From NCBI GenBank assembly GCA_004431415.1, contig QPMI01000666.1:75118-139117 (forward strand): a DNA stretch of 64,000 nucleotides. The letters run 5' to 3'. Every line of letters starts with the position of its first letter. The stretch's first letter is position 1. Under the pieces are notes generated by a model. That model did no database searches. It had not been told where the DNA came from and worked only from the letters and a program-made list of their open reading frames with translations. This DNA is from Cyanophora paradoxa CCMP329. Its lineage: Eukaryota > Plantae > Glaucophyta. The translations under genes and the position numbers were made by a program. Of the stretch, positions 17,471 to 64,000 are shown one piece after another.

Positions 17471-22535
<5,065 letters not shown>

Positions 22536-40419: not shown

Positions 40420-40439
40420 GTTCAGCAAAGATCGAAAGC

Positions 40440-40705: not shown

Positions 40706-40714
40706 TGCGGGAGA

Positions 40715-44113: not shown

Positions 44114-44465
44114 CGCGCGGCACACTAGTACTGCAGCTGTGGCAGATCTAGATCACAGCTGCAGTCGACGTCGACGTCGACGTCAGGCTGCAAGTTAGAT
44201 TTTCTGGGGTACACAGGCCAGAAAATGTTGCAGTTCCACGAACTATAAGCCTTCCTATATACGTGGGCCTTTGTGAAGCGTTGAGCTCTCGAGCTTGCCC
44301 CTTCGCTGTCAATGCATTGTTAACCCTCGGAGGTTGCATGAGTCACGCGTCGCGGAGGTTTGGGTGTTATATTGCGATCAGGTACACGCTGCACTAACAG
44401 GGGGGCTAGCACTAACCGACGCGGGGAGTAACAGCCGGTGTACCCCTCGGGGGGCCTCCCGGCCT

Positions 44466-45244
44466 CTAACGATGCTCAGGCTCTAACTGAATGCTGTACC
44501 CCCCGCTGTTACTGCCCGAACCTTCCGAACTTGCGTAATTCGGCCTCGCCCTGTACCCAGTGGCTGGTGTCGTCCATCCATTCGCGTACCTCCCTCTGAC
44601 GCTTGAGTGACTCACGCTGCTCGGGGGTAGGGGAGGGGGGCCTTCGAGGCGGGTGGGGAAGGGGTACGGTGGCAAAATTCAGCCACTCGGGGGTATGCCG
44701 AATTCGCCGTGAACGATCCTCTGCGGTGTGAAATACCGGTCGCTGCTCACGGCCAAGTGGAAGAACGCGCTCCTGAGCCCGGAGAGGAAGCGTGGTTGCA
44801 TGAATGGCTGCTGGAGGGACTCGTCGCGCCAGGGGGCTACGAAATCAATGATACGCTGCTGTACCTGCGCGGGCAGGGCAAGGATCTGGCTCTTGCGGTT
44901 CGCAAAGGCCGTCCACAGCGCTTGCAGGTCGGCCCAATCGCCGTTCAGATCCCTGCGTTCGCGCCTCAGGTACGATCTCGGGTTCTCTGTCATACCCATC
45001 AAGCCCGCGGCCCTGATCATCTCCCTGTCCGGGAGCTCTCGCTCGTCGTGGAATTCGTCTCTAATCCAGCGCACAAGGTAGAGCACGCGCTCCATGAAGT
45101 TCTCCGCCGGCGAGCCGCCCCTGAGGACGTGCGCCTCCCCTCCAGCACTGCGTTCGCATCCTCCAAGTCCACGTTCCGCTGTCGAATCTCCCCGTCCAGG
45201 TCGCCGTTGTTGTACAGCACGTCGGACTCGCGTGTTCGCGCCAT
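44466..45244 (-). CDS. Viral hypothetical protein, paralog of 45279-45974 (apparent frameshifts)
   Basis: MARTRESDV.../FMERVLYLVRW...ALPAQVQQRII...LSGLRSAF.../Pro-rich tail. Confidence 0.6.
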
Positions 45245-45278
45245 GCTCGCGGCTCGGTGAGAATTTATACCTGTACCC

Positions 45279-45974
45279 CTACTCGCGGTCGGGGTACCTG
45301 TCGCCGGGCATCAGCCTCGCGCGCTTCCGCATCTCCGCCTCCCCGGGTAGCCAGTTCTTCGGGTCGTTGCTCCACTCCTCCCATTCGCGTATGTCCCGTC
45401 TGACGTCACGCGGGGCGGGGCGTTTATCGGTGGGCGGGCGGGGCTGGCAGGGCCTGGCGCGGGGGTTGAGGCCCCTGTTCCACGAGTACTCGGGGTACTC
45501 TTCCCATCCCAGGGGTACCAGATTCATCGGAATTGGCTCAACTTCGAATTGGGGCTTTTTGACGTGATAATCATAGTTTGTGACATACGCCGTCACAGCC
45601 GAGCGCAAGCGCGAGAGGTCGCGCAAATTTACGTCGTCCCATTGCGAGTCCCTTGCCTTCGCGTACCACTCGAGGATTTGCATGCGAATGTGGTCCGGGA
45701 GGGTCGAGAGTATGCTGAGCTTGGAGCCCAGGGCGAACCAGATGCGCTTGAACTCGTCGATAATCCTGCCCTCGTCGTGGCTCCGAACGTAAAGGGCCCC
45801 GCCAGAGTTGTAATGCGTGTCTAGCCACCCTGCCCGGGCCAGCTCTAGCACCGGCCAGGGTTGGCGCTGTCGATTCGGTCGCGAGGCCTGCTCTACCACC
45901 CAGCGTCTAAGGTCCTTGACCTGATCTATGAACTGTGCGATCACGTCCCTGGGCGCTTCCTCTGCATCCGACAT
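45279..45974 (-). CDS. Viral hypothetical protein
   Basis: Intact intronless ORF from MSDAEEAPRD; upstream AATTTCTTG motif. Confidence 0.7.
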   Translation of the reverse strand: MSDAEEAPRDVIAQFIDQVKDLRRWVVEQASRPNRQRQPWPVLELARAGWLDTHYNSGGALYVRSHDEGRIIDEFKRIWFALGSKLSILSTLPDHIRMQILEWYAKARDSQWDDVNLRDLSRLRSAVTAYVTNYDYHVKKPQFEVEPIPMNLVPLGWEEYPEYSWNRGLNPRARPCQPRPPTDKRPAPRDVRRDIREWEEWSNDPKNWLPGEAEMRKRARLMPGDRYPDRE

Positions 45975-46024
45975 TTGCAATTGCACACATCAAGAAATTC
46001 TAAACGCTACTGCGAGGCTACGCT

Positions 46025-46681
46025 ATGCATACCGATACAAATTGCGAGACTTTGCAACAGGGGAGCGCAGCGTGGCACGCGGCGCGCCGTGAAAAACTAA
46101 CTGCATCTAATTTTGCGGCTGCGTGCGGCATAAACCCCTGGAAATCCAGGGCCCGCCTGTGGGCGGAGCTAAGCGGGATAGCGGAGGAAAACAACTTTGA
46201 CAACCCTGCCCTAACCTATGGGCATGACTATGAGCCCCTCGCGGTCTCTCTCTACAAGGCACTGAACGATAACGTGGACATTCAACACACTGGACTGCAC
46301 GAACACAAAGAAATGCCGTTCCTCGCCGGGAGCCCCGACGGACTGATAGGAAATGATAGGATTTTAGAGGTGAAATGCCCTTACAAGGGCGAACTTTACG
46401 ATAGCGTTCCTACCTATTACATGACTCAACTTCAGGGCCTGCTGGACATAACGGGCCGCGAGTGGGCCGAACTTTTTTGCTTCACTCCTCTGTGCGTGCA
46501 AACGTGGTACGTCAGACGGGACGAGAGGTACATCGAGCTCATGCGGCGGTGCTTACATCTATTTTGGATGCACGTGAAGGCTGGAACTCCGCCCGAGCCC
46601 TACAGCGATCGAATGAAGTCAGAGAACCTCAGCGAGGAGCAGGCGGCGCTGCGCGAGTTTAAGTCGTACGCCCTCCTCTAG
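46025..46681 (+). CDS. YqaJ/lambda-type exonuclease
   Basis: QGSAAWHAARREKLTASNF; YGHDYEP; LAGSPDGL; LEVKCPY; YMTQLQG. Confidence 0.95.
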   Translation: MHTDTNCETLQQGSAAWHAARREKLTASNFAAACGINPWKSRARLWAELSGIAEENNFDNPALTYGHDYEPLAVSLYKALNDNVDIQHTGLHEHKEMPFLAGSPDGLIGNDRILEVKCPYKGELYDSVPTYYMTQLQGLLDITGREWAELFCFTPLCVQTWYVRRDERYIELMRRCLHLFWMHVKAGTPPEPYSDRMKSENLSEEQAALREFKSYALL

Positions 46682-47015
46682 TGTCCCGACCCTCTCAGAT
46701 ATTAATTTAAAGATCTGGGAGGGTCGGGACACGTCTCTTGGTCAGACTACTTATGTACGCCCTCCTCTAGTGTCTCGACCCTCTCAGATATTAATTTAAA
46801 GATCTGGGAGGGTCGGGACACGTCTCTTGGTCAGACTACTTATGTACGCCCTCCTCTAGTGTCTCGACCCTCTCAGATATTAATTTAAAGATCTGGGAGG
46901 GTCGGGACACGTCTCTTGGTCAGACTACTTATGTACGCCCTCCCTCCTCTAGTGTCCGGACCTTTCCAATAATCTATAAAGAAAGTAGGGAGGGTCCGGA
47001 CACGTCTCTTGGTCG
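46666..47015. repeat. Tandem array of 89-bp units (3 near-identical plus 1 diverged), each with an AT-looped palindrome; candidate replication origin
   Basis: GTGTCCCGACCCTCTCAGAT-ATTAATTTAAAG-ATCTGGGAGGGTCGGGACAC at 46681, 46770 and 46859 (one left-arm substitution in the last two); variant at 46952. Confidence 0.92.
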
Positions 47016-47298
47016 GACTCACCGTAGCTTGGTGTAGCTCAGGCCCAGGCGGGGAAGGCGAGTCTGCAATGAATCAGACCCCACAGGATTTGGTTGAGCT
47101 GCTCTTTGCAGGGGGGCAGGAAGGCGGCCGCAGAGGGCTAGGGAGACTAGATCTAATTAGTAATCCCACACCGCGCATGTGCAAGCGACAGAGAACGAAG
47201 TGAGTAAATGCAGATCGATGATACGGCAATCATGAGTTGTTCAGAAAAGGTCGGGACACATAGAGAGTGCATGCCCTCACTCTCGTCCGCCCTCGCAA

Positions 47299-47348
47299 TG
47301 TCCCGACCCTCCCAGATCTTTAAATTAATATCTCAAAAGGTCGAGACA
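47299..47348 (-). repeat. Single palindrome unit in reverse orientation, downstream of the helicase
   Basis: Reverse complement of 51216-51265 with one mismatch. Confidence 0.9.
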
Positions 47349-47449
47349 TTCATTGATCATATGCATGACGTCACTTGAATTCGCACGTTCGTATTTACAC
47401 ACTGGCACGCGCATCCCGTTCGCGAAGTCCACACTGTGACATCCGACAA

Positions 47450-50400
47450 TCACACGCGCCTGTGAATGAGAGCATAGCAGTCGGAGAAAACGTTGTAAAC
47501 CTCTGGGAAGCTTGGCGCCATGCCTGCCCTTGCCTGCTTAGCCTGGCGCTCTACTGCGTCGTCGAGCATGTCTTCCTCCCACGTGATGTAGCGTCGCTTT
47601 CGGCTGCCCATTTGCCCTCCGTCCGCGTCGGAGAAAGCGCGTCTCACTCCGAGGTACTTCTCCAGCAGGTACTTGATGACTTGCCAAGACTGCTGCGAGA
47701 GCCGCTTCTTCTCACCGTCCGCTGCATCGAAGCGGGGCGCGCGCTCGTCCAGACTCTGCAGAGCCGCGTACGCCTCCCGACCCTCCGGCGACGCCAGGGC
47801 CGCGTAGGCTTCGTCCGACCACAGAGCACGCCCCGCGAGCTTTCCATACCCCGCCAGCCGAAGAGTTTCTTGAACAGCGCGACGACCTTCGATACCTTGA
47901 GGCGCTCAGCAGTAGGCACGATCTCGGCAACGTCCGCGCCATGCTTCAGCACCAGCGTGACCACGGCAGTGAGCGGGATGGAGTAGAACGAATCCCACAT
48001 CCAGGCGACGTCTCCTTCGGTCAGCTCGCTCGGATCCTTGGCCAGGAACGCGGCGATCGACGTGCGAGCAAGCGAAGCAACCTTCTCGATGTCCAGCTTA
48101 GCGAGAGACTCGCGGGACTGCCTCCAGGCCAGCACCGTGCTCCACAGATCGACGGGCTCCAGCGCGCCCGCCTCCAGCACGCTCCTGATCTCGCGCAGCC
48201 GCTGCTCCTTCTCCTGCTTCGGTCCGCTCGGGTTTTGATCCTCCGTGACTTGCACGTTCATCAGCGCGCAGGTCGACATCAGCCGCAGGCGCGCTGCCAC
48301 TGCGAGGCGCCGAGTGGGCATGCCGGCGCGGCGGCTCCCGCGGTGGCTAGCCTTCAGGTCCAGGTAGCGCTGCATGTCGTCCGAGCTCTCGTCGTCGTCG
48401 CTCTCACGCCAGTGCGCAGCCGCCGCGCCGACCGCAACCGAGGGCGTCCGGTTCTTGCGCACGGCGACGAGCAGGTGCTCCCCGTCGGGCGTGCTGCGTT
48501 TGCGCAGCCTTCTGACTCGAAACAGCAGCTGCACGATGTCGTCCGCCTCCAGCTGCGCGGGCTCCGCCTGGAACACGCCGTAGACCTTGTCAAAGTGCGC
48601 GTCCGAAAAGTCCACGCCTGCCCCGAGCGCGGAAGTTGCGATGAGCACGTCGCAGGCCTTGTACGCGCCCTCCTCAGACACATCGATCGACACGATGCCC
48701 ACAGATCGACGGGCTCCAGCGCGCCCGCCTCCAGCACGCTCCTGATCTCGCGCAGCCGCTGCTCCTTCTCCTGCTTCGGTCCGCTCGGGTTTTGATCCTC
48801 CGTGACTTGCACGTTCATCAGCGCGCAGGTCGACATCAGCCGCAGGCGCGCTGCCACTGCGAGGCGCCGAGTGGGCATGCCGGCGCGGCGGCTCCCGCGG
48901 TGGCTAGCCTTCAGGTCCAGGTAGCGCTGCATGTCGTCCGAGCTCTCGTCGTCGTCGCTCTCACGCCAGTGCGCAGCCGCCGCGCCGACCGCAACCGAGG
49001 GCGTCCGGTTCTTGCGCACGGCGACGAGCAGGTGCTCCCCGTCGGGCGTGCTGCGTTTGCGCAGCCTTCTGACTCGAAACAGCAGCTGCACGATGTCGTC
49101 CGCCTCCAGCTGCGCGGGCTCCGCCTGGAACACGCCGTAGACCTTGTCAAAGTGCGCGTCCGAAAAGTCCACGCCTGCCCCGAGCGCGGAAGTTGCGATG
49201 AGCACGTCGCAGGCCTTGTACGCGCCCTCCTCAGACACATCGATCGACACGATGCGCACTGGGCCCTCGTTCGTGAAGCGCACGCTCTTCTCCTTGGCCT
49301 GCCCAACGATGAGCCCGATCGTGAACGGTGCGCCGCTGCCGTCCTCGGGCCCTGCCTCGAGCTGAGTCACGTACTGAGCGCCGCCCAGGCTGAGCTGCTC
49401 CAGCGCCTGCTTCGCAATCTTCTCCTGCAGCTCGATCGCCTTGGCCGGCGTCTCCGCGATGATCATGGCCCGCGAGCGCCCAGGTCGGCACTGCACCATG
49501 ATGTCCGCCTCGACGTGCGCCGGGCTGTCTGACACGCGCATCTTCCAGTCGCAGGTGCGATGCGAGTTGTACAGGAGCCCCAGGCGCGCCCCGACCTCCT
49601 GCGCCGACTCTGCCAGGTACGCGAGATCGACCGACCGAACGAAGCCGTCCATCGCCACGATGCGCGATGCCTTCATCACGCCGCGCCATAGGCCCACGCA
49701 GCGCGCGTTTCGAGGCACTGACCGCATACCTAGGTGCAGGCCGGTGGGCTCGAGGGTGCCGCTCGAGGTGAGGTGCTTCGTGAGGGAGGAGAGCTCGTCC
49801 AGCACGACCAGTAGCGGCGCCGTCGACCAGCCCTCCCAGTCCTCGAGCACCTTGTGCAGCGAGTCCCATGTGATGACGACGCACCTGCACTCCTCATGGC
49901 GGAAGCCCCACTTGCCATGCGATCCCTTTGAGCTCTCCGGTGGCTTCTTGATGTCCATGTAAAGCACGGCGTCCTTTGACAACTCCGCAGCATCAATGCG
50001 ACGCTTGAGGTCGCGGGAGAAGGCCCGGCGGCAAGTCACGAGGATCACTCGCCAGCCGCCTGCGAGGGCCGGGTCCAGGTACGCATCGATCAGCGCCTGC
50101 GTCTTCCCCGTGTTGAGTCCCGAGCAGATGACGTCGACCTGCGGCTGAGCGGATCTCGGGTTCTGCTCCAGCGCCCCGAATGCGGAGGTAAGGATCTTGC
50201 ACGAGAGGTGGCGTTCATCCACTGCATTGACGCAAGCCTCCAGGCCCGTCGACTCGAGCGCGATCAGGAGGGAGGGGAGGGCAATGTCGAAGGCGACAGG
50301 CTGCGAGGGATCGGTCACATAGCGGGTCTGTGCCACGCTGCCCGACTCCCCTCCGGTCCCCTCCCCTCGAGCTCGACTTCAATACCGTGCGCCTGGATGG

Positions 50401-51125: not shown

Positions 51126-51215
51126 GGTCGTCTCTCTATAGCTAGGCTTGGAAAATTCTAGATCTACTAGGCTAGTCAACGTCTGTTGGCTAGCTATAGT
51201 CGACGTCTGGACTGC

Positions 51216-51265
51216 TGTCTCGACCTTCTGAGATATTAATTTAAAGATCTGGGAGGGTCGGGACA
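51216..51265 (+). repeat. Single palindrome unit upstream of the helicase
   Basis: TGTCTCGACCTTCTGAGATATTAATTTAAAGATCTGGGAGGGTCGGGACA. Confidence 0.9.
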
Positions 51266-52231
51266 GGCTTTGGTCCGACCTTAAGCGCTCAACTAGACCC
51301 GGTTGACACCGTCTTGATCTCTCCTTCTTGGCGCAGCGGACGATGTGACGCGCAGACCGTCGGCCCGGCGGACGGGGAGGCGCGCGCGTAGAACTTCGGA
51401 AGCGCTAGCCCCTTGCTTGACCGAAGCTTAGAAAGTTTTGAGCGCACGCGAATGCGACACGTGTAGAGAGAAGGCAGAGCGCGCCGGAGCTAGCTTGCGC
51501 GGCCGAGCGCTCGACCGCCTTTGCTCCTAAGCTCAGAAAGTTTTGGGCTCACGCGGTTGCTCCACGTGTTTCGACTCAAAACACAGTACCCCAACCCGAA
51601 AAAAAGCGCCCGGGCAGCGCATCTCGCAGCGCCCGGGCCCAGCGCTCCTTGCAGCACTTGCCAGAGGCACTAGCTTGCATTCCGCTCAGCCCGGAGAGCC
51701 GCCGCCTCGCTCCTTTCGATTCGGAGGTGCGCCTCACTTCGCAACCTCTTTCTCCGCACCACGGCTAGCTCCGGACCTCAGATTTTGGGCGCTGGAAAGC
51801 TCTCTCGACGCCGCACTCACGCCGCCACGCGCAGGGTCGCTCGCGCCGGCCGCGGACCTTCGAAAGCTCGATGGCGCCCGAGCCGGAGCACTCCGCCGCA
51901 TCCCGCAGGTGCCAGCTCGCTCTCTTGCCGCTCTATCCCTTGCATTTAGCACCTAGAACATGCCCCGCAACCTCGCGCTCGATTCGCCCGCGTCCGCTGA
52001 CATTTGGTCTCTGAGCAGGTGCCGAGATTGGCCGCCGCGCCTTCCGCAACTCGAGCCGACGTTCGCGGCGACTTGCGCACGCTTCTAGATCTCGTTCTCA
52101 AGCCCGCGCATCGATTCGGCGGCTCCGGCTCGCCTCCCCGCGCCTCCAGCCCCGCGCCCCACACCCGTTCTTGTCCTAGCTAAGCCCTCCCTTGTCCGCG
52201 GCCAGTCGCGGGCTACGCGCATCGCGGATAG

Positions 52232-53565
52232 CATCAGTGGAGCTACGTTTCAGCGCTGGACGCAGGCCCGCCCGCCCAATCCCTCCCACCTCCCGCTCGC
52301 AGCACGCTCACTGGGCCGCAGGCAGCTTCGCGGGGAGCCGCTGGATTCGAAGCCGCGCACCTTCCCCGCCCGTCCCGACGTCGTACGCGCTAACGTCGCC
52401 CGCGCCGCAGGTGGCCGCCAGGCCTCCTGCATCCAGGCCTTCGAGCCGGTGTGGCTGCGGGAGAAGCGCCTCGCCTTCTGGCAGGAGACGGCCTCCTGCC
52501 CCCTCACCCGCTTCATCATCACCCACTGCGTCGTCGACCCCACCACCTTCCTCGTCGGCTCGGAGACGGAGGGCTGGATGACGAGCGTCGCGGGCATCGT
52601 CGAGTACATCGCGCGCACGGAGGGCCCGGACACCTCCGCCGCCGTCGGCGCTGACATCGAGAACGGCCGGCTGGACGAGACCCTCGCCGGCTTCGGCTCC
52701 TGGTGCCGCCCCTACTCCTACAAGCTCGGCGGCGTCTGGCAGACCTACATCCGCGGCATCGTCCCCAAGGCCCCGCTCTCCCTCGGCGAGAGCCAGCCGG
52801 CGCTGGAGGCGATCGCGATCCCCGTCGCCCAGTTCAAGGACCCGGCGCCCGACGTCGGGCCCTTCCTCGTCAAGCCCCACACCAAGGGCAAGGGCAAGCG
52901 CACCCGCAACTCGGCGCCGGCCTTCCTCCCGCCCCAGCCCCCCGCCACGGCCCCCCAGCAGCGCCCCGGCCAGCAGCGCATCGACGAGATGCTGCCGCGC
53001 CAGGTCCGGCCCCGCGTACCCCCGCCTTCCCTCCCGTACCCCCCTCCCCCGCCCCCTCCTGATCCAAGGGCAGGGTACCCCGACGAACGGCGGCGCGGGC
53101 CCGAGCGGCTACGGGAGCTCGGCCTCCTCCGCGAGCGCCGACGGCCCCAGCCCCCTCCCCGGCCCCGGCGCCGTCCTCACCGCGATCCAGGGCTTCGGGG
53201 CCCAGCAGGAGGCCGAGCGGCGGGCGCTGGCGGCGCGCCAGGCGCGCGAGGCGGAGGAGCGGCGCCAGGCCCTCTGGGCCCAGCGCCTGCAGGAGGCCAC
53301 CGCCTTCCGCGCCGAGCTGGAGGCGGGCTTCCGCGCGGAGCGGATGAGCGCGGCGGAGGCCGTGGAGAGCTGGCGGGCGTTCGAGGACGGGACCGTGGAG
53401 CTGGCGAAGGGCCTCGGCTACAGCTACCGGCGGGCGCCGGTGCCCACCTCGTACGCAAGGCGGGCGGCGCGCGAGGCCTCGCGGGCAAAGATCGACGCGG
53501 CGGAGGAGCAGGCGGCGCGCGAGGAGGCCGAGGACAACGCGCGCTTCCGGCACCTGCACCACTGA
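52232..53565 (+). CDS. Intron-containing hypothetical protein within the element (coiled-coil C-terminus); 5' end unresolved
   Basis: A GT-AG intron at 53004-53073 joins ...EMLPRQ in frame to GTPTNG...QQEAERRAL...RFRHLHH*; probable GC-AG introns at ~52266-52321 and ~52352-52410. Confidence 0.6.
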
Positions 53566-53613
53566 GGCCCGAGGCGGTATTTTTTCTCAACCCTCCCTCA
53601 ATTCGGTCCCGCG

Positions 53614-53802
53614 ATGGCCTTCGAAGCTTATCCTGCCCACTACTCGCTAGGAGCCCTCGCCGCGACCCTCACCTGGCTCCTCGGCGGCACCCCCACGGCC
53701 TCGGCGGTCATCGGCGTGGGCTTTGGCTACGCCGCCAAGAGCCTCTACGCCCCCGGCTGCGCCTCGCAGGCGGCGGCCGGCATGCGCCCCGCCGGGCGCT
53801 AA
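53614..53802 (+). CDS. Small hydrophobic viral protein
   Basis: 62 aa with two hydrophobic stretches; upstream TTTTTTCTCA motif. Confidence 0.6.
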   Translation: MAFEAYPAHYSLGALAATLTWLLGGTPTASAVIGVGFGYAAKSLYAPGCASQAAAGMRPAGR

Positions 53803-53897
53803 CTTTTCAAAGTTCATTCTCCCCTCCCCCTTTTCCGAGTTCCGAGTCCGTTGGCGTTCCCTTTTAAATTTTCTTCATTCTCGTTACACGTTCGAAG

Positions 53898-54377
53898 ATG
53901 TCGAGCGCGGTAGAGAAGCTGCTGTGCACCGTGTTCAAATCGGATTCGCGATGCAGCAAGATCGGCGAGGCGGCGAGGGCTAAGGGTGGGGCGGCGGCGG
54001 AGGGGCCCAGGGTGAGGGCGGCGGATCCCGCGCCGCCGTCGCTGAAAACGATCAAGGGGGCGGGCAAGGGCAGGAGCGTGGGGGCGCTGCCCCTCGTGGC
54101 GATCGCGCCGGGGCAGAGGGAGGCGGCGCACGCGGCGACGGCGGCGCTGGCCGCGCGGCGCCAGGCGGAGGCCTACCCGTGCCTGGGCCGGGGGCTGCAC
54201 CCGCCGGCCGGCCGCCCCTACGCCGTGAGCGCCTACTTCGACGAGGCCAACCGGCTGAGCTGCCAGGAGCTGTGCGACAACCGCATGCGGCGCGCCGTGG
54301 ACGGGCACCTGCCGCTGCTGGTGGCGCTGGGCGGCTCGCTCCTGATGGTCTGGTACCTGCGCGGCCTGGTCATTTAG
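53898..54377 (+). CDS. Viral protein with C-terminal TM helix
   Basis: LPLLVALGGSLLMVWYL; upstream motif. Confidence 0.65.
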   Translation: MSSAVEKLLCTVFKSDSRCSKIGEAARAKGGAAAEGPRVRAADPAPPSLKTIKGAGKGRSVGALPLVAIAPGQREAAHAATAALAARRQAEAYPCLGRGLHPPAGRPYAVSAYFDEANRLSCQELCDNRMRRAVDGHLPLLVALGGSLLMVWYLRGLVI

Positions 54378-54414
54378 ATAGTTTTTCGAAACCCCGGTTG
54401 GAAGCTAGCCAAGG

Positions 54415-54741
54415 ATGAGCTGGCTCGATGCGCTGCTCACGAAGACCTTCGGCCCCAAGGGCCAGCCGCGCCTGCAGTTCGGCGAGATCAACGCGGCGAT
54501 TGGCGCCACGGTGGAGACGAAGAACCGAGAGAACGTCCTGCGCGGCGACGGAGGCGCGTGGGCCGACATTGCGGCGGGCGCCCTGGGCTCCGCGCTCACC
54601 GCACCGGGCAAGGCGGGCCGCGCGCTGACGGACGGGGCCGAGCGCTTCTGGCACTGGCTCAAGGTGGCCGTTGTCATCGCCGCAGCGGTTGTGGCGGGTC
54701 TCCTGGTGCTCGAGGCTCGCGCGCTATTTTCTAAACGCTAG
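54415..54741 (+). CDS. Viral protein with C-terminal TM helix
   Basis: WLKVAVVIAAAVVAGLLVL; upstream motif. Confidence 0.65.
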   Translation: MSWLDALLTKTFGPKGQPRLQFGEINAAIGATVETKNRENVLRGDGGAWADIAAGALGSALTAPGKAGRALTDGAERFWHWLKVAVVIAAAVVAGLLVLEARALFSKR

Positions 54742-54757
54742 GTAAACCGAGCGAACC

Positions 54758-55130
54758 ATGCGCGGCGGCTCTTCCCCCGTGTTTCCTTCGCTGAGAACCC
54801 GGTGGCGAACGCAGTCGCCCCTACCCCCTGGAGCCCGGAGTGAAGCTGGAGCGTGCGAACGCAGTCTCCGTCAAGAAGGCCAAGCGCACGCTGGCGCTGG
54901 AAGTCCCGGTCGCGGAGGATACGGAGAAGGTTGCATTCAACAAGCGCAAGACGTACAAGGCGATACGCGAGGGACAGCTGCTGCCCACGGACTCGGTTCC
55001 CGGGCTGCCGGGCACCACGGCCGGCGAGCTCCTAGTGCGCAACCTGCGCCTGCAGTACGTCTCCCGCCTCCGCCGCTCCAAGGCCAAGAAGGCGCGCCTG
55101 GACTCGGGCGATAGCAGCTCTAGCTCGTAG
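54758..55130 (+). CDS. Basic viral protein (one apparent frameshift near the 5' end)
   Basis: ATG 54758 follows ATTTTCTAA; main frame KLERANAVSVKKAKR...RRSKAKKAR. Confidence 0.55.
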
Positions 55131-55157
55131 GGCTCTGTACTGTTGTATTCAATGCCT

Positions 55158-56130
55158 TTACCAGTTCCTGTTCCTATCCCAGAGCACGACTCGGGTGAAG
55201 GGCACGGTCATAGCGAACATGAACTCGGCGAACTTGGCAAAGTTCATCAGGGTTCCCAGGCGGGGATCCTCCAGTAGATCGCCTCGCGCAGCGCCTCGTA
55301 GACGCGCATGAGGGAGCGCTCGTTCTCCGTCGCGAAGGCGTCGCCGGGCTCGTCGGGGTCGGGATCCGTGAGCTCGGAGTACTCGTCCGAGCTGCCCGCG
55401 CTCTCGGCACCTGCGGCGGGGTCGGGCGAGGGGTCGGGCATTCTTTGCTGGTAGAAGGGCTAGAAGAGGGACCAGAAAATCACTAGCAATCACGGGCGCC
55501 GGAACTCCATCGAGTCGCCGCGCCAGTACTTGTTGCCGGAGGCGAGCAGCTTCATCGGCTCGCCCGTCGAATCGTGCTTCCAGGCCTCGCCGTCCCAGAG
55601 GGCCGTGCCGCCGTCCTCTAGCTTGAGGCGGTGGCCCGGCTCGAGCCGGTTGCCGTCGAGCATGCGGCCGGCCATGAGCGCCAGGTCCCACTCGGTGAGG
55701 TTGCGCTGCTCTGCGGGGGTGAGGCCGCGCTCGACGCGCTCGGGCTGGCGCGCCTCGCGCTCCATGCGGCTGAGGCCCACCAGGAAGAAGATGGGCAGGG
55801 CAAAGGCCATGAGATCTAGCAGGGCCTCCATTGAGGAGGGACTTAGAAAAGGTTCCGGACCAGGCCCGAGAGCTGCGGGCCCAGGCGCCGGGCGGCGTAG
55901 TAGAGCGCGGCCGCCGCCGCCGCAAGGATCAGCAGGCGCGGCGGGCCGCGCGCCGGCTCCTCCAGCGTCAGGTCCACGGTCTCCGGCCCGCGCGCCGGAG
56001 CCGCCAGGATCTCGGGCTCGGAGCAGAGGGACTTGGGCCCACGGCGGCGGCGCTGCTTGGGCGCCGAGGCGGCGGCGGTGAGAAGGTCCTCAGGCTCCTG
56101 CTTGATACCTGCGCAGTCAGTAAAGTCCAT
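55158..56130 (-). CDS. Cluster of four small viral ORFs (55843-56130, 55490-55831, 55247-55441, 55158-55247), two with TM segments
   Basis: Tightly packed; the three larger ORFs follow the upstream motif; TGATG stop/start overlap at ~55247. Confidence 0.55.
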
Positions 56131-56899
56131 GCTTGCTGGGTACCTTGGAAAATTGTGGGAGGCGTCCGGAGATTGCGAACGTAGGAGGGGGGAGAAATGA
56201 CGCGGACGCAAAAGATTCCGTCATGGGTTTTCCGTCATGGGCTGGAACTTGGACTCGGGACTCGGCCGGGAATTCTCCTGGTAAGTTCGAGACTTGAACT
56301 CGGCGGGGTACCCCCTATGTCCAAATGCCCTAGTGTCCCAGAGTCCTAGTGTCCTAGTGTCCTAGTAGTACTAAGTAGTACTAAGTAGGTGGTATCGATA
56401 TCTAGCTAGCTAGCGCTAGCGCTTGCTTAATTAATTACCTGAAAGGTTGCGGAGGTTGCGGACGCGTCACAATTCCGTCATGGGTTTTCCGTCATGGGCT
56501 GGAACTTGGACTCGGGACTCGGCCGGGAATTCTCCTGGTAAGTTCGAGACTTGAACAAGAACGACGTACCCCTCCTATGACCGTTCTATACTACATTAAA
56601 GTATTCATTGATTGTGAATAACGATAATGTCATAGCAACTTCAGTATGATGTCATAGCAACTTGAAATTACCTTCAAGTCGAATAGAGGGGTACAGAGTC
56701 GGTACGTTAGACTTGACAAAAACACGTGTATTTTTTTACGCCGAGTTTTGCGGCCGAGTCCCGAGTCCAAGTTCCAGCCCATGACGGAAAACCCATGACG
56801 GAATTGTGACGCGTCCGCAACCTCCGCAACCTTTCAGGTAAATGTCAGGTAACTTCAGGTTAATTAATTAAGCAAGCGCTAGCAAGCACTAGCTAGATA

Positions 56900-57328
56900 T
56901 CACAGCTCTACCTTGCCCAAGTTGATGGTATCTAGCAAGGCCTGCTCCTCCAAGTCTGCACCACCACCGCCTCCCAGCGCTAGCGCTAGCTCGATACCGC
57001 CTCCGGCCTTGATCTCCCTTGGCTCCAGCCACCTGAGAGGCTCAGGCCACCTCCTCCTGGTGAAGCCGGTATCGTTGCTCTTGTCCAGCTTGAGGTAGCG
57101 GTAGGGCGCCGGCGCCGGCCAGTCCGGCCTGTGGCCGCTTGCCTCCTTGGCTATGTCCTTGGGCCTACGCGGTCGCAGGTCCGCCTTGGCCTTCGCCCTC
57201 TGCAGGGGGCCCAGCGCCTTGAACTTCGGTGCCTTGGTCGCCGGCAGGGCCTTGGGCTGGGGCTTCTGGGGCTTCTGCATCTTCACCGCCTTGGGCTTCG
57301 GCATCCTTGGCTGCTTCGATTTCGGCAT
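56900..57328 (-). CDS. Lys/Pro/Arg-rich basic protein, candidate DNA-condensing core protein
   Basis: MPKSKQPRMPKPKAVKMQKPQKPQPK...; TTTTCTCA motif upstream. Confidence 0.55.
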   Translation of the reverse strand: MPKSKQPRMPKPKAVKMQKPQKPQPKALPATKAPKFKALGPLQRAKAKADLRPRRPKDIAKEASGHRPDWPAPAPYRYLKLDKSNDTGFTRRRWPEPLRWLEPREIKAGGGIELALALGGGGGADLEEQALLDTINLGKVEL

Positions 57329-57566
57329 ACTTCTTGCTCATAAATGAGAAAAGCGCCTCAAAGTCTGCCTTTATCTCCTCCTTGGACCAGGATGTCATCT
57401 GATCCGGGTCACCTGAGAACGGCGCATCGAACGCCACGTGGAGCGATTTGCAGGCCTGGGCAATCATTGGCTCGGGCCATGCCAGCTCGATCAGCTGAAG
57501 GTAGATGTTGAGGGCCTTGTCGAGCTTGGCGCCCTGGGAGACCAGCTGGGAGATGGCGGGCTCCAT
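57165..57566 (-). CDS. Viral hypothetical protein overlapping the basic ORF
   Basis: MEPAISQLVSQG... preceded by ATTTTCTGA. Confidence 0.5.
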   Translation of the reverse strand: MEPAISQLVSQGAKLDKALNIYLQLIELAWPEPMIAQACKSLHVAFDAPFSGDPDQMTSWSKEEIKADFEALFSFMSKKYAEIEAAKDAEAQGGEDAEAPEAPAQGPAGDQGTEVQGAGPPAEGEGQGGPATA

Positions 57567-57721
57567 GGTGGGTAGACTAGCATCAGAAAATGGCGCCAAG
57601 TTCGAATCTATTTTTTTACCGGGAGAGTTTGGGCCCGAGTCCCAGGTCCAAGTTCCAGCCCATGACGGAAAAACCCATGACGGAATCTTTCGCGTCCGCG
57701 TCACTTCTCCCCCCCCCCTCC

Positions 57722-57795
57722 TCAGGTGAGCGCTCACCTGAACCTCACCTGAACGGCCTCTATAAGCACGCGGCACGCGGCGTTCCCCTCACACT
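57722..57795 (+). promoter_or_regulatory. Pol II-type core promoter: 20-bp palindrome, TATA-like box, initiator-like CACACT
   Basis: TCAGGTGAGCGCTCACCTGA (57722-57741), TATAAG (57761), CACACT (57790); same layout before the next two genes. Confidence 0.6.
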
Positions 57796-57827
57796 CTCAA
57801 TCTCTCTCAACGCAACCAGCAAGCAAC

Positions 57828-58301
57828 ATGGCCCTTGTTGCCCAGTTCTTCGTCGAGGAATACACCGTGCGCGTGATCGGCGAGCCCATTGACCGCGAGG
57901 TGGAAGTTCTCAAGGACGGCAAAGTAGACGACTGCAAGGACTGCCCCGGTAAGATCCTCCTCATGAAGCTCTCCGACGATGGCTTCTCCTTCACCCTGGT
58001 CTCCTGCGCCAAGACCCAAACCGGACAGACGGCCTACATCGTGACCTTCTCCGCGGGGCGCCTGAACTGCACGCATGTTCAAGTACCCGAGTGGGCCTCG
58101 TTCTGCGCGGCGATCTCTCCCTCAGGCCGCTCCCTCGCCTACACATTCTTTGAGGGGTATCAGTGCAACATCTGGGTCTTGCGGAGGCAGATGGGCTCCC
58201 CCCAGATGAAGGTCGATCAGCTGCACCAGCAGTGCGGCTACCCCTTTAGCCTTGACGATAGGATGATTTCCTTTGATCTTGATGGCTCTGTATCCCTCTG
58301 A
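57828..58301 (+). CDS. Viral hypothetical protein
   Basis: 157-aa intronless ORF after a TATA/Inr-like layout. Confidence 0.7.
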   Translation: MALVAQFFVEEYTVRVIGEPIDREVEVLKDGKVDDCKDCPGKILLMKLSDDGFSFTLVSCAKTQTGQTAYIVTFSAGRLNCTHVQVPEWASFCAAISPSGRSLAYTFFEGYQCNIWVLRRQMGSPQMKVDQLHQQCGYPFSLDDRMISFDLDGSVSL

Positions 58302-58408
58302 AATTGAACGCGTGTTTTCTGACTTCGTCTGAAGCTCACCTGACGCGGGGCCTTAAGAGGGGCACGGGGCCTCGGTTCCTCACACTTTAACCGTAAGCCA
58401 ACGAGAGA

Positions 58409-58698
58409 ATGTGCGCCCCAAGTACTTCACCTGCTGCCTGACCTTCGGCATCTTCGAGTACGAGGCCATGGAAGAGGATCTGGACGAGAACGGCGAGATC
58501 TGCTTCAACTACTGCAGGCTGCTGCGCAACATCTCGCTGGAGTGCCGCAAGGGCGACTGCTTCCAGCACATCATGCTCAATCCCGCCAAGAACGAGATCA
58601 CCCTGTACGCCGTCGCCTGCCCCAGCGCCAGATTTAGACTCTCGAATATTCGCGTAGCCGCGATCGAAGCCCTTCCCCTCCCCAGTGAGACGAATTGA
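58409..58698 (+). CDS. Small Cys-rich viral protein (probable 5' frameshift)
   Basis: ATG 58409 is out of frame with the body KYFTCCLTFG...; promoter layout upstream. Confidence 0.55.
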
Positions 58699-58802
58699 AC
58701 ACGTGTTTTACCTGAATCACCCGAGCGCTCAGCTGAAGTCAGGTGGGGCGCCCTTTAAATATTTTCTAGCGCTAGGCTGATCGCACACTAAGCTCAGACA
58801 AC

Positions 58803-59580
58803 ATGGCCACCGTCCGCAACGCCAACGAGATCGACCCCGCCAAGCTCGCCTTCGAGATCGACGCCACCGGCCGCATCAAGGCCAAGTACGACGGCCTGCA
58901 GGGCCTCATGATGTACGCGCCGCCCATGGTCACCATCAACCCCTGCATCAACACAGAGCAAGGCAAGGCGTGGAGCGACGAGAAGAAGGCCTTCGTCATG
59001 GAAGAAAACGGCGGATTCTACACGCTGGACCTCACCGATCTCAGCGCCGTCGACGGCCAGACGAACCCCGCCGCGGACGAGTTCCTCAAGCTGCTCGAGG
59101 CCCTGGACGCGAAATTCTGCGAGTTCGTGCAGCAGAACCAGGCCAAGCTCAAGGTCTCGCCCGGCCGCTCCTCTCCAAGGACCAGATCTCGGTGCTGCAG
59201 ACCCCCAGCGTGCGCATCAAGGTCGACAAGGAGTCGGGCCAGGCTTCTACAAGTACCTCAACATGCGCATCCGCACCCAGACGATGGCGGGCAAGCGCAA
59301 GACCATCCCGTCGTCGACATGTCCAACTACCTCATCACCGAGCGCGCCACCATCGGCACCGGCGACCTGGTGGCCGCCCTCGTCAAAATCGACACCGCCT
59401 ACGCCATCCCCGAGGGCAAGTTCGGCCTCAAGTGGTCCTTCCTCGCCGTGCAGCAGTGCAAGGTCGGCGCCTTTCGCTTCGCCGGCGCGCCCCCGAGCTG
59501 GCCTTCAAGCCTACGACAACGAGGCCGATTTCGAGCCCTACCTAAACCCCGAGTCTATGTACGCAGCCCCCATGCAGTAG
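58803..59580 (+). CDS. NCLDV-type (DUF2738/T7 gp2.5-like) single-stranded DNA-binding protein, frameshifted
   Basis: YAPPMV...YTLDL...FLKLLEALD..F; IGTGDLVAALVKID....GKFGLKWSFLAVQ; acidic/aromatic tail. Confidence 0.7.
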
Positions 59581-59633
59581 CTCGGACGAATAAATTGTGA
59601 ATTTTTGGTGCAATTGATTACAAGCTTTTACAC

Positions 59634-60436
59634 TCAAAGGCCGTTGAACTTGCCGCCCACCGCCTTGGGCTCCGCCGCCGTCGAGGCCGCCGCCTCCGTC
59701 ACCTCCTTCATCACCTCCGGGTTCGCGTTCGCCGCGTGCACCGCCAGCACCGTCTGCACCAGGGCCATCCCCAGGCGCGCCTCGGGCCCCAGGGTCACGT
59801 AGCGCGAGTACTTAATCACCAGCTCCTCTAAGATCGGCTGCACCTGGTCCATCGAAGAGAGCGTCGCCTGCCCGAGCCCGTCGAGCTTCAGGCCGATCGG
59901 ATCGTACGCCTTGTTCAGGTGCTCCAGCGAGTGCATGCCCGCGATCAGAAAGAGGCGCGCCGCCTCCAGCGAACCCCGCGTGCTCAGCTCGCGCTGAATC
60001 TCCTCGTACTCTTCCTTCAGCTCGTCCAGCGGCGTCGCCAGGCTCAGCTTCTTCGTGGACGTAAGCTCGCCCCGAACGAGCGCCTGTACTGCGCGATCTG
60101 CCGCAGAACCTGCTTCTTCTCGTCCACGTCCACCTGCGCCTCGTCGCGCGGCCTCTCCTGCAGGTCGATCCCCAGCGCCTTCTTCACGCTCTGCTCCTTC
60201 TTCTTCGTCATTTCGATGTGCTCCTGCACGCTGAAGCTCGCCCCCTTGCTCGGCGCCGTCGGCGGCACCGTGGGCCCGTCGCCCGGCAGCGCCGTCTTGT
60301 CGGCCTTCGGCGCCTTCTCGCCCTTTTCCTTGCCCTCCTTCGCGGGGCGGCCCTTCTTCCGGGGCTGCGGGATTCCCACGGGGTTCGGCCCGTCCACGGC
60401 CAGCGCCTCGAAGCCAAGCATCGCCGAGGGGTCCAT
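59634..60436 (-). CDS. DUF5767-like conserved NCLDV protein (one frameshift ~60060)
   Basis: LDELKEEYEEI...LIAGMHSLEHLNKAYDPIGLKLDGL...ILEELVIKY...GPEARLGMALV...VHAAN. Confidence 0.65.
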
Positions 60437-60465
60437 CCTTTACGCCTGCCCCTTAGAAATATTTT

Positions 60466-60793
60466 TCACTCCGAGGTCAGCTCGACGAAGAGCTCGATGT
60501 AAAGCCAGAGCTTTTCGCGCAGCTCGGGCCCGCTGCCGTAGAATAGCGAGCGCACGGCCGAGGCGTACTCCTGCGGCAGCCTCTCGAAAACCGAGTCGTC
60601 CTTCGCCTTGATCAATTCCGCCTCCGCGTTGATGTGCCTCCTGAACAGAACGATGACCGCCGTGGCCCTATGCCGCGCAGCGACTGGATCTGCGCCCGCA
60701 CCCCGGGCTCCTTGGCCTCCGGCTCCAGCAGGTCGAGGAAGCGGCCCAGCGCGCCTCGATCTGCTCGCCCAGCGTCGCCTCCGTCGCAGCCAT
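60466..60793 (-). CDS. Viral hypothetical protein (frameshifted)
   Basis: MAATEATLGEQIE...LFRRHINAEAELIKAKDDSVFE...REKLWLYIELFVEL*; not assembled by the ORF track. Confidence 0.55.
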
Positions 60794-60815
60794 GTGCTCG
60801 CGTGGGCCTCAGAAA

Positions 60816-61934
60816 TTACTGACCGAGTCGGAGCGCCTGGGCTGCTTGGTCGAACATCTCCGCCTTCCGGGCGTTCGTTTCCGCAAGCATGGCAATCTGG
60901 TTGTTCTCCGTGTTCCGGACGATGGACTGGAAGGCTGTCTGAATTGCAGTCTGCGATGCAGCGGACATACCTGCCACCGTTCCTTTAGCGCGGAGCTCTA
61001 GCATGCGTCCTTTCTGGAACGGCGTGGCAAGTTGATTGCCCTGCAGCGCAGGGAGCGGGTTGACGACGCGGGGCAGCAGGTTCTGGTCCGCGTAAGGCAT
61101 GGCCGTCGCAGGGCCGGGCCGCGCGTCCCCGCTGATCGAGGAGCATCGCCCCAAACGGATTGCCCCGGCTGAAGTCCACGTCGTTGCGGCCGTAGGGCTT
61201 GTTGACGGCGCTGCTGATGTTGGCCGTCTGCGCGTTGAACATGGGCGATAGATCGGGGGTGTAGCCCGCGCGCAGCCCCTGGGGGTTCGCCTCCGTCTGC
61301 CCGTAGCGGCCGGCCGGCCGAGCAGGTTCTCCTTCTCGATCTCTTCCATCGTCTTGATCCAGCCGCGCTCGCGCGCCCACTTCATGACGAGATCATCGTA
61401 GTTCATCGGGAAGAAAACCTTCTGGTACTTGTCGAAGCGCTGAATTTCGATATCCTGCTCGATCATGTTCGTAATTCGCTCCAGCAGCTCGGGGTAATAT
61501 TCCTCGAGCATTTTGGCGACGCCCGGCTGCTTCAGGTCGAAGGCCGTCATCGCCCACTGGTCGAAATCGCGAATCATGATTTCCTTCCGCAGGCTGAACG
61601 CGTTCTCCACGTCCTCCTCGTTGATCGTGCGACCGGGGTTCGCGTTCTGCAGCTGCTGTCGGATGCCCATCCGCATCAGCTTCTCCATCGAGGGCGTGTA
61701 CTTCATCGCGGGCAGGGTCTTCGTTTCCCCCCGCTGAGCCCAGGCCCCGCGCCTTGTCCTCGGGCGTGTAGACGTCTGCCTTCGTTCCATCTACGACGGG
61801 CACCTCGGGCATGATCGTGCCGGAAGGAACTTGTTCACGATGCCGTCCATGTCGGCCTTCAGGTCGTTCTTCAGCGCCTGGCGCTGCTTCTTAGAGCCCT
61901 CCCCAATGTCCATCATAGAGTGGCCCTTCGTCAT
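60816..61934 (-). CDS. Probable structural-module protein next to the capsid gene (frameshifted)
   Basis: Core FDQWAMTAFDLKQPGVAKMLEEYYPELLERITNMIEQDIEIQ...DDL..W...G.I, reminiscent of a conserved protein of small NCLDV relatives (from memory, unverified). Confidence 0.55.
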
Positions 61935-62012
61935 CGTGCCTCGGTTAGGATCCCAGTGGGAAAATTTATTGTTCACATCGGCCTACCAAGCACACCCTGG
62001 CTAACAAGCAAT

Positions 62013-63376
62013 CTAATGGAAGCGGCGGTAGGCGCCGCCGTTGGTGAAGGTGATCTCGTTGTAGTAGCGGCAGTAGATGTCGGCCACGGGCTTGTCCGCG
62101 CCGTAGGTCTTGAGCGTGGTGAGCGTGAGCTCGATGGTCTTGAAGGCGCCCATGTCGAGGCCGCCGAACATCTTGGTGTTGTCGGCCACGTCCGTGCCGA
62201 AGGGGAGCGAGTAGATGAACTCCGTCCCGAACTGGCCCACGTTGCGGGGCTGGATGTCGCTGCTGTGCCCGTCGTGGGTCGCGAGGGTCGTGGGGGCCGT
62301 GTCGTTGCCCGACCACGGGTGCGGGTGCAGCGCGTCGGCCACGTCGGCCGCCGCCGTCCCGTCCATCGAGGTCACGCCCCGCAGCAGCTCGAGGTGCTTG
62401 CGGGCGGGGGCGTGCGTGTGCTCCTTGTGCGCGATGGCCGTGCGCAAGAAGTGCGCGTCGTGGTTCGAGCTATCGAGCACCTTGATGTTGTCGCACTTCA
62501 GCTCGATCTTGTCGAGCGGGCGGAAGCGCCAGAAGTGCTCGCCGTTGTCGGTGTGCGGCTTGTCGCGCACCACGATGATCAGCTCGTAGCAGATTCCGGT
62601 GAAGGGCAGGCGGATGGCCTTGCCGGACTCGAACGAGACGTGGTAGTGCTGCACGTACTTGCGGCCCACGTGAACGAGTTCGGGTGCAGCGCCAGCTCGC
62701 GCGAGTCGATGTGCACGTAGCGCAGGATGAGCTTGGTGTCCAGGCTGACGGTGCTCGTCAGGTTGGTGTTGGTGTGCAGGCCGCCGTCCACGAAGGAGGC
62801 CGTCACTCCTTCTGCGAGGCGTACGTGATCTGCAGCTTCATGTCGTTTCCGGAGCAGCGGAGCTTGTGGAGCGGCACGGCGAACTTTCGACCGTGGCCCG
62901 TCGCGATGCGAATCGGTATGTACAGCGTGTTCGGGGCCTTGCCCCGGCGGCGCAGCGGCTGGTGCGCCCAGAGGTTGTTCACCATGTCGACGTGCTGGAC
63001 GACGGACTTGTCGTCCTCGACTCGCCGTAGATGGCGTCGTAATGGCCGTCGTACTCGTGGATCAGCTGCGCGCCCACGAAGATCTTCACCTTCTTGAGCA
63101 GCACGTAGCCGGCCTTCGGGATGTAGAAGTGGTCCGCGTTCGTCAGCGCCGCAGCGTCACTTGAGCCAGGAGTCGTTGAACATCGGCGCGAGTGCGGGAT
63201 GACGATGTCGACGGTCTGGCTGAAGCTCAGCCCGACTGCACGGGGCTCACCTCGAGCACCTCGTCCACGAACGGCATCGCCGTGTCGAAGGTCTCGTGCA
63301 CGTGCACCGACGCGTCGGAGCTGCGCAGCGAGTGGTGCAGGGCGGTCGAGGGGGTGGAGATGAGCGCGGAAGCCAT
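62013..63376 (-). CDS. Double-jelly-roll major capsid protein, NCLDV-like (several 1-nt frameshifts)
   Basis: SFSQTVDIVIP; GYVLLKKVKIFVGAQLIHEYDG; LYIPI...FAVPL; IRLPFTGICYELIIVVR; FIYSLPF...GGLDMG...IELTL; YYNEITFTNG. Confidence 0.85.
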
Positions 63377-63569
63377 GGTTTAGGGGTGCGTTGAGAAATT
63401 TTGTGGATGGGCGCCTATGCGTCCACAAACCTCCAAAAATCGATGTCGGGTCCGTCCCCGAGAAATAATCTCGTAGCAGCTGCGCAGGCACGTTGGCAAT
63501 AATCTGCCCGGGCACGCCTTGGCCGTGTGGTACCGGGAAATCGCAATTTCCGCGAAGCTCCCGAGGTCT

Positions 63570-64000
63570 CGTCATTGTTTCCGAAGCGCCTCTGTATGTC
63601 TTTGAGCGCCTTGCTGTAGGCACCCTGGATCTTCGCGCTCTTTGATCCTCAAACCACCTGCGCCGCTCCTCCGCGTCAGGGTTGCCCGCGAGAAACGCCG
63701 AAATCTGAGCTGCATCGGGGCCGACGTCCCATCGCTGTTTGCGGGCGGGAGGGGGCACGCTGGGGGGCGCACTGGGCCTGCGGCGGGTGCCGGCATCACC
63801 TCTCCCGTGGGGCCAATGTCCCACCGGCGCCTGCGTGTGCGCTCGCCGCCTCTCGAGTGCCCGTTTACGTACCTCAAGCGTCGCCTCTGCCTCCATCACG
63901 TCCGCCTGCAGCCGCTCCGTCTGGATGAACTCCGAAACGGTCGCGAGCTCGCTTTCGGGGGCCGCATCGGCCGCCACGTCGGTGATCAGCTGTCTGCGCG
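63570..64000 (-). CDS. 3' part of a further viral ORF entering from the right edge
   Basis: Open helical frame ELATVSEFIQTERLQADVMEAEATLEVRKR; end uncertain. Confidence 0.45.

Follow-up and report, generated by a model that had tools for sequence, protein, structure and literature searches.

Multiple sharp-ended copies of a probable Mriyavirus-like endogenous DNA virus in the glaucophyte Cyanophora paradoxa

Background

Contig QPMI01000666.1 of the Cyanophora paradoxa CCMP329 genome assembly (GCA_004431415.1) contains, within a stretch of 64,000 nt (contig positions 75,118 to 139,117, forward strand; hereafter the window), a transition from host genes to a block of packed open reading frames (ORFs), which raises the questions of what kind of element this block belongs to, whether it is truly joined to the algal chromosome, and whether it is intact. 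A preliminary description, made from the sequence alone, had proposed an endogenous virus related to the nucleocytoplasmic large DNA viruses (NCLDV, Nucleocytoviricota) in a glaucophyte. This was largely confirmed: the region from 44255 to the window end (64000), 19.7 kb in length, forms the left part of a DNA virus endogenous to C. paradoxa, with a capsid protein that matches the Pfam family Capsid_N and a host-virus junction found in 4/4 sequencing runs. The element is probably a small Mriyavirus-like provirus, one of ~20-40 copies, which integrates actively and is predicted to replicate in the nucleus with host polymerases, and its membership of the Mriyaviricetes is likely.

Mriyaviruses have been described as viruses of 35-45 kb that encode a major capsid protein (MCP), ATPase, VLTF2/3, RuvC, HUH and either a superfamily 3 (SF3) helicase or a UL9-like superfamily 2 (SF2) helicase, and that lack polymerases (Yutin et al. 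2024, PMC11253617). Among living viruses they have been proposed to be nearest to the giant-virus ancestor, and only Yaravirus has been described as isolated. If our reading is correct, apparently intact and precisely integrated copies in an axenically culturable model alga would make the mriyavirus life cycle testable (induction, virion structure, origin use and integration enzyme), and glaucophytes would gain one of their first defined virus-host systems.

Host and viral DNA meet at a sharp end

At least half of the words of positions 42500-52000 were carried by 20 public runs of one organism, and the junction was followed in four of these (X1, X5, X7 and X14), which represent four different samples dated 2012-2024. 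In 4/4 runs a contig of the host Ccs1 region (3.2-3.3 kb, at single-copy depth and with 0 differences) reached 44284 or 44285, which in 3/4 runs is 31 letters beyond 44254 (the minimum for bridging), and contig depth rose at 44255 in all four. Long unrelated flanks joined the element at 44254-44265, at least three per run in X1, X5 and X14 and two in X7, with the main joints at 44254/44255 and a variant end at 44265; these flanks were mutually unlike, with a consensus agreement of 0.5-0.6. Because single-copy host contigs enter the element in 4/4 runs and several unrelated flanks meet the same end, the host-virus junction is real, which removes the earlier concern that the contig might be chimeric.

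The first 82 bp of the element were ~1.4-1.5x deeper than the next contig, and are possibly a terminal repeat. No special hairpin was detected in these 82 nt (z 0.57), and a 10-mer common to the terminus and the repeats near 56 kb was rejected, as it lies near chance (12 matches, a number reached in 5/100 shuffles). Host repeats rich in TACGTA/TATATAC, located at 4511-4567, 6428-6498, 14851-14919 and 31890-31922, are similar to the bases with which the viral terminus begins (CTATATACG). A TATA-like target preference of the element is a possibility.

The capsid protein is a divergent member of the NCLDV type

The MCP gene is split into five frame pieces in the window, all of which map on an intact database model of 456 aa (P0001), with the C-terminal 215 aa being 100% identical. 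P0001 matched Capsid_N (PF16903) with 32.2 bits against a cutoff of 24, which was passed by 3/4 intact MCPs (P0001, P0002 and P0006), with P0003 just below. In the ESM Atlas, Nucleocytoviricota were commonest in all listed MCP clusters (score 0.97-0.98), and hhalign gave 96.9% over 171 columns with an NCLDV MCP from outside C. paradoxa (P0018). An AlphaFold model compared with the PDB matched the faustovirus MCP (Z 25.4, root mean square deviation 3.3, 322 aligned) and PBCV-1 (Z 22-24), with weaker matches to vaccinia D13 (Z ~19), Sputnik (16.7), mavirus (15.2) and adenovirus (11.5), and it leans to the NCLDV fold because 38/44 alignment rows are NCLDV-like. Identity of the MCP to those rows is only 15-23%. 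The model also matched NCLDV capsids in BFVD, where no mriyavirus MCP was named among the top 50 rows (several rows being nameless). The capsid is of the NCLDV type, as had been proposed from its motifs, and is a very divergent double jelly-roll protein; the view that it lies nearer to NCLDV than to virophage capsids is borne out both by the fold comparison and by the Capsid_N match, which was obtained on the bare sequence.

A search of the C-terminal half of the MCP against a 50%-representative library gave six matches, all from the C. paradoxa proteome. The only MCP match outside this species was P0018 (E 6e-8), which led to 58 Megaviricetes-like loci that were used as outgroup. P0018 is annotated as an NCLDV MCP in a cyanobacterial metagenome-assembled genome (Allocoleopsis sp.) on a 14-kb contig, and this is probably a viral contig binned with the cyanobacterium. 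Pattern scans of viral, metagenome and prokaryote contigs returned no environmental relative of the MCP, such exact-peptide scans being weak for distant kin, and tblastn in phages gave no match. In a quick tree of 17 Cyanophora models, P0018 and 37 locus ORFs, with Megaviricetes-like references only, the 17 Cyanophora MCPs formed one clade (SH-aLRT 100).

The element belongs to a family of similar copies, and its broken frames look like assembly errors

Relative to the host flank, viral contigs were 18, 36 and 42x deeper over the helicase gene and 21-38x deeper near the terminus, although contig depth is not equal to copy number and the ratios vary twofold between runs. In the C. paradoxa proteome, 32 gene models for the MCP come from 30 named contigs, not counting P0023, which is a non-capsid fragment. 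There are roughly 20-40 similar chromosomal copies with one common sharp end in C. paradoxa, and some tens of its contigs hold gene models that are viral rather than algal.

The 12 indels listed out of 77 were all a single added G or C, most of them at full depth in several runs. The contigs of all four runs carry an extra base at 45117, within the first ORF of the element, and another at 60069 in the DUF5767 gene, and a 557-bp repeat at 48142-48698 within the helicase gene was skipped by an X14 contig. These 12 indels and the 557-bp repeat, a false duplication, look like assembly errors. Intact MCP models of 456-485 aa exist in C. paradoxa, and the reading frames are open in the family as a whole; we infer the same for this very copy.

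Gene content and candidate replication origin

The block of ~25 packed ORFs previously placed from position 44400 is indeed viral, but it starts at 44255, and after merging of frameshift pieces we count ~21-23 genes before the element runs on past 64000. Following fused database gene models further to the right ended at singletons. Non-coding gaps are located at ~51.3-52.3 kb and 56.15-56.9 kb, GC content is flat across the border (0.613 in the host part, 0.634 in the viral part), and CpG is not depleted (observed/expected 1.08). A Pfam scan of 150/151 stop-to-stop frames of at least 75 aa in the visible part (leaving out 44152-44394) matched YqaJ, Herpes_ori_bp and DUF5767 only, with E-values (Table 1) that uphold the original assignment of a YqaJ protein, an SF2 helicase and a DUF5767 protein. 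The same scan detected none of the following: the protein-primed polymerase pPolB, RVE integrase or tyrosine recombinase, as noted before; ATPase, VLTF2/3, RuvC, HUH or other integrase; or PolB, RNA polymerase and metabolic genes. It is insensitive to frameshifted genes, because the broken MCP pieces were missed too, and the absence of integrase and pPolB is thus weakly tested. Motif scans for Walker A, HUH, RuvC and CxxC gave off-frame or unconvincing matches only, and nothing in 41000-64000 matched Rfam.

The best PDB matches of the helicase were herpes origin-binding proteins (E 0.03), and the ESM Atlas agreed with a UL9-like SF2 helicase. The N-terminal region of ~270 aa is frameshifted and had no Pfam or PHROG match, and an intact N-terminal AEP domain was not recognised there. 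No environmental relatives were found in pattern scans with the helicase or DUF5767, which share the weakness of exact-peptide scans for distant kin. A second UL9-like helicase (P0041, 872 aa, 53% identical, with a much shorter N-terminus) is encoded on another C. paradoxa contig, hinting at a further virus subfamily.

The helicase gene is accompanied by copies of a 50-bp hairpin with a G+C stem and an A+T loop (-21.1 kcal/mol, z -8.9, with 0/200 shuffles as stable), and a back-joint from 51277 to 51214 was observed in three DNA-type runs. The herpes oriS/UL9 system, in which an origin is paired with its helicase, is the analogue of this arrangement, and by this analogy the hairpin arrays are likely to be a replication origin. 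The alternative that the helicase and its inverted hairpins form a separate nested transposon was provisionally set aside, as their depth ratio equals that of the rest of the element. Within the repeats at 56184-57717, an opposite-strand joint (56424/56891) was found in X5, and this region could be an invertible segment or a second origin.

The single-strand DNA-binding protein (SSB) reported earlier was not confirmed, as 58803-59580 had no Pfam, PHROG or PDB match. The label, which we retain as putative, is based on resemblance; contigs carry extra bases in this ORF at 59243, 59306, 59483 and 59509.

Three capsid types share one slot

The MCP models fall into three types (A, 23 models; B, 6; C, 3) that are 59-69% identical between types, with type B being 67% and type C 59% identical to type A, the type found in the window. 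A 113-aa gene (55490-55831) lies 7-10 gene numbers from an MCP on 10/14 contigs listed, a synteny that is based on gene numbers and not on DNA. This gene is still 92-93% identical on a contig of type B and on one of type C, and the neighbouring 94-aa gene is 94% identical on another type B contig. Copies also differ in the gene that lies upstream of the MCP (P0020, P0030 or P0007), and one contig has two type A MCP models five genes apart. The simplest reading of these comparisons is that capsid modules may be exchanged on a common backbone, with paralogs within one element being a possible alternative. Capsid types that are swapped in this way would point to selection acting on the particle.

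Expression signals

A WTTTC/AATTCT motif was located within 50 nt of 15/16 ATG starts versus 40/410 other ATGs, with a pattern that was chosen after inspection of the starts; two of 18 starts were mis-set (not ATG) and left out, and the count with both is 16/18. Three genes on the + strand also share an upstream block with a TATA-like element, and the two ORFs at 57828-58698 each follow a common motif of CTCA(C/G)CTGA, a TATA-like element and CACACT. A 73-nt GT..AG segment (55411-55483) was skipped in run X15 (joint 55407-55481) and not in X1, X5 or X14, which hints weakly that the host machinery transcribes and splices the viral genes, the observation coming from one contig of one run with a guessed RNA status (as for all of X15-X20). 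In the same presumed RNA run, contigs were far deeper at 45755-48358 and 54869-55519 than in the rest of the element, a lead at most, as such depth cannot rank genes. Methylated Nucleocytoviricota-like gene clusters have been reported in C. paradoxa (Sarre et al. 2025, PMC12344493).

Proposed mechanism and alternative explanations

We propose that the genome would be inserted at the terminus beginning C-TATATAC by an end-specific recombinase or integrase, whose gene may lie in the right half of the element or which may act in trans. By analogy with herpesviruses, the UL9-like helicase may use the arrays of 50-bp hairpins next to its gene as origin, binding and opening them, while YqaJ and the putative SSB would promote replication that depends on recombination, as well as exchange among copies; the three capsid types at one slot would be explained in this way. 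Host RNA polymerase II could read the genes from the common upstream WTTTC motif, with some splicing, CpG methylation may hold down most copies, and intact copies could still form virions. A bolder version, possible but well short of probable, is that the element represents a new family-level lineage of small Nucleocytoviricota relatives and that no temperate virus system had been defined in a glaucophyte before it, with precise ends made without an RVE or tyrosine integrase, herpes-like hairpin origins to which its UL9-type helicase binds, three capsid alleles swapped among dozens of intact proviruses, and inducibility in a standard laboratory alga.

Several points weigh against a Mriyavirus-like provirus of this kind. 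Bridging of the junction sits at the 30-31 letter limit. Mriyaviruses are described as being without integration genes (10.64898/2026.06.19.733378), a poor fit with a precise end, their PDDEXK nuclease is described as not orthologous to YqaJ (PMC11253617), and DUF5767 is not named in the mriyavirus supplement; the lack of ATPase, VLTF2/3, RuvC, HUH and integrase among the 150 frames points the same way. For the MCP, ESM recognition (1993) lies below the 2300 mark, the AlphaFold model has a mean pLDDT of 52 and was built on an alignment dominated by NCLDV-like rows, and a model from six paralogs with no added rows reached a pLDDT of 33. The Cyanophora clade lies ~10 changes per site from the 38 NCLDV-like rows, in a tree without mriyavirus, PEV or polinton-like virus (PLV) capsids, from which family placement is impossible. 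The limits given above for the depth ratios, the capsid synteny, the promoter pattern and the splicing sign count in the same direction.

An unlikely alternative, and the one that survives best, is a PLV-sized Mriyavirus-related element of 20-30 kb (of the Zora/VC102, VC134, VC218 or Zephyr groups, or of a similar but new group), which would encode an RVE integrase or a tyrosine recombinase close to its right end and have a PLV-like spread, perhaps with a helper giant virus. The sharp end with many flanks would suit such an element, the deeper first 82 bp is as expected of terminal repeats, those groups are described as having NCLDV-like capsids and often integrases, and there are 366 PLV-type MCP matches in C. 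paradoxa (Bellas et al. 2023). However, 19.7 kb are already spent without an ATPase or integrase, the six C. paradoxa PLV MCP representatives are by eye unlike this MCP and were not returned by MCP searches, and the combination of UL9-like helicase, YqaJ and DUF5767 leans to Nucleocytoviricota.

We regard it as improbable that the window holds the end of a larger giant endogenous viral element (GEVE) of the Megaviricetes type, with polymerase and transcription genes further right. No PolB, RNA polymerase or metabolic gene occurs in 19.7 kb, the low identity of the MCP to NCLDV-like rows argues against it, and a genome of no more than 100 Mb has little room for ~30 elements of several hundred kb each, even though the fold and family matches are to large NCLDV capsids, the MCP tree contains no small-virus references, YqaJ is described as common in Nucleocytoviricota (PMC11253617), and the C. 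paradoxa clusters have been called GEVEs (PMC12344493).

A decayed relic spread by host segmental duplication, with real frameshifts, would explain the many broken frames in the assembly and the many truncated or fused database gene models, but is very improbable, as the contigs of four runs carry the missing bases (in the 12 of 77 indel rows listed) and lack the duplication, intact MCP models exist, the flanks diverge at a single base position, and CpG is not depleted. Finally, a free culture virus joined to host DNA by mis-assembly is hardly credible: the viral contigs are of high depth, but the same host-virus contig recurs with 0 differences in four runs of four samples over twelve years (2012-2024), and several further host-like flanks meet the same end.

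Other features of the viral part and host DNA of the window

The features are collected in Table 1. The + strand ORFs of 52392..55130 are located at 52.4-53.56 kb (frameshifted), 53614-53802, 53898-54377, 54415-54741 and ~54.76-55.13 kb, and several have hydrophobic ends, as judged by eye. Hydrophobic stretches of this kind, likewise noted by eye, are the basis of the small transmembrane proteins mentioned in the preliminary description.

Table 1. Features of the host flank and of the visible part of the element (window coordinates)
Feature	Position	Strand	Basis or remarks
Host Ccs1/ResB exon (cytochrome c biogenesis; not viral)	42617..43201	-	Pfam ResB E 1.4e-23 (42620-43201)
Left terminus, possible terminal repeat	44255..44336		Depth step at 44255, branch at 44336
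ORF split by a frameshift, 3' end approximate	44545..45244	-	Translations; function unassigned by Pfam
231-aa ORF	45279..45974	-	Multi-copy: cluster of 6 members; P0080 90% identical
YqaJ-like (PD-(D/E)xK) exonuclease/recombinase	46025..46681	+	PF09588 E 1.7e-28; phrog_434 E 4.8e-39
Tandem array, 89-bp unit, 3.9 copies, 50-bp hairpin per unit	46666..47019		Candidate replication origin
Inverted copy of 50-bp hairpin, 3' end of helicase gene	47299..47348		98% complementary to 51216-51265
UL9-like SF2 helicase (origin-binding protein family), ~1040 aa	47450..51125	-	PF02399 at 48357-50318, E 6.9e-9
Hairpin-unit copy upstream of helicase	51216..51279		Tandem in other copies
Five or six ORFs	52392..55130	+	Clusters of 7 and 4 members; no Pfam match
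Three small ORFs (94, 113, 95 aa)	55158..56130	-	Protein clusters, database comparisons
Four copies (two per orientation) of ~85-100 bp repeat, with nested inverted arms	56184..57717		Repeat search
ORF pieces inside repeat block	56900-57566	-	
Two ORFs (157 aa, ~100 aa)	57828..58698	+	Each preceded by common upstream motif
Putative SSB (unverified label), frameshifted	58803..59580	+	Resemblance; no Pfam, PHROG or PDB match
DUF5767 protein	59634..60436	-	PF19071 at 59637-60071, E 8.6e-14
Two ORFs downstream of capsid gene	60469..61934	-	Larger one fused to MCP in model P0005
MCP of the Nucleocytoviricota type (double jelly roll; capsid type A)	62013..63376	-	Pfam, profile, fold, database models
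3' part of 265-aa ORF (P0020), start beyond window	63415..64000	-	

The host part of the window contains a pair of 303-bp inverted repeats, 98% complementary and 24 kb apart (15950-16252 and 40122-40424), the second of which adjoins a low-complexity coiled-coil ORF (40349-41380); the pair probably represents a repeat or transposon of the host. Three copies of another host repeat, dispersed, ~95 bp long and with GCGGCCGCCGCGG units at its end, are located at 8682-8757, 13136-13230 and 31274-31368. Pieces of an intron-rich helicase gene are located at 19266-22421 (-), which we take to be a DEAH-box helicase of the Prp22 type; one fragment was scanned and had no Pfam match at E 0.01. Long GC-rich host ORFs at 35298-38185 (-) gave a weak TRP-family match (E 0.006, below cutoff), and the product is probably a membrane protein.

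Comparison with known systems

The element resembles those Yaraviridae of the Mriyaviricetes (SF2_hel) for which a UL9-like SF2 helicase is described (PMC11253617), in having an NCLDV-type double jelly-roll MCP, a UL9-like SF2 helicase (PF02399), a PD-(D/E)xK nuclease, a putative SSB, mostly ORFan genes and, in the visible part, no PolB or RNA polymerase. Unlike these viruses as described, it is integrated in ~20-40 copies with a sharp end and has YqaJ proper and DUF5767, with no intact AEP domain recognised, HUH, ATPase, VLTF2/3 and RuvC are unseen in its left 19.7 kb, and no relative was retrieved by sequence. Of the Mriyaviricetes-like gene mix suggested in the preliminary description, the MCP type and the UL9-like helicase fit, whereas class membership goes beyond what they establish.

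The same description had suggested a possibly undescribed lineage, which is true only in part; it did not include the multi-copy family, the defined terminus or the architecture of the repeats. The link to glaucophytes is not new, because embedded regions related to the Mriyaviricetes are reported from a Glaucocystophyceae assembly in a preprint (bioRxiv 10.1101/2025.04.19.649669), from the same host class and viral class and probably of the same family; these regions are described without anatomy, and Nucleocytoviricota insertions without mobility genes are read there as mainly accidental, whereas the end of the C. paradoxa element is precise and repeated. Likewise, the methylated giant-virus elements of C. 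paradoxa (PMC12344493) are Nucleocytoviricota-like gene clusters of the same species, treated as giant-virus insertions, with no capsid, terminus, copy-number or classification analysis in the text of that paper, where the word 'capsid' does not occur. We found no description of the ends, copy number or capsid types of this family in the literature searched, which excluded most subscription papers, and the anatomy (a defined end, copy number and capsid swapping) appears new.

Among small viruses with an NCLDV-related capsid module, as this element has, Zora (VC102), VC134, VC218 and Zephyr (bioRxiv 10.64898/2026.06.19.733378) are groups with terminal repeats and many integrases, but they measure 20-30 kb, glaucophytes are unmentioned in the main text of that preprint, and the C. 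paradoxa element has no integrase in its visible 19.7 kb. The Phaglo-G/PEV dwarf viruses ('Gamadviridae', bioRxiv 10.1101/2022.07.28.501842) are, like the element described here, small and NCLDV-like, were found in algal assemblies, and have a GC content of ~61-63%.

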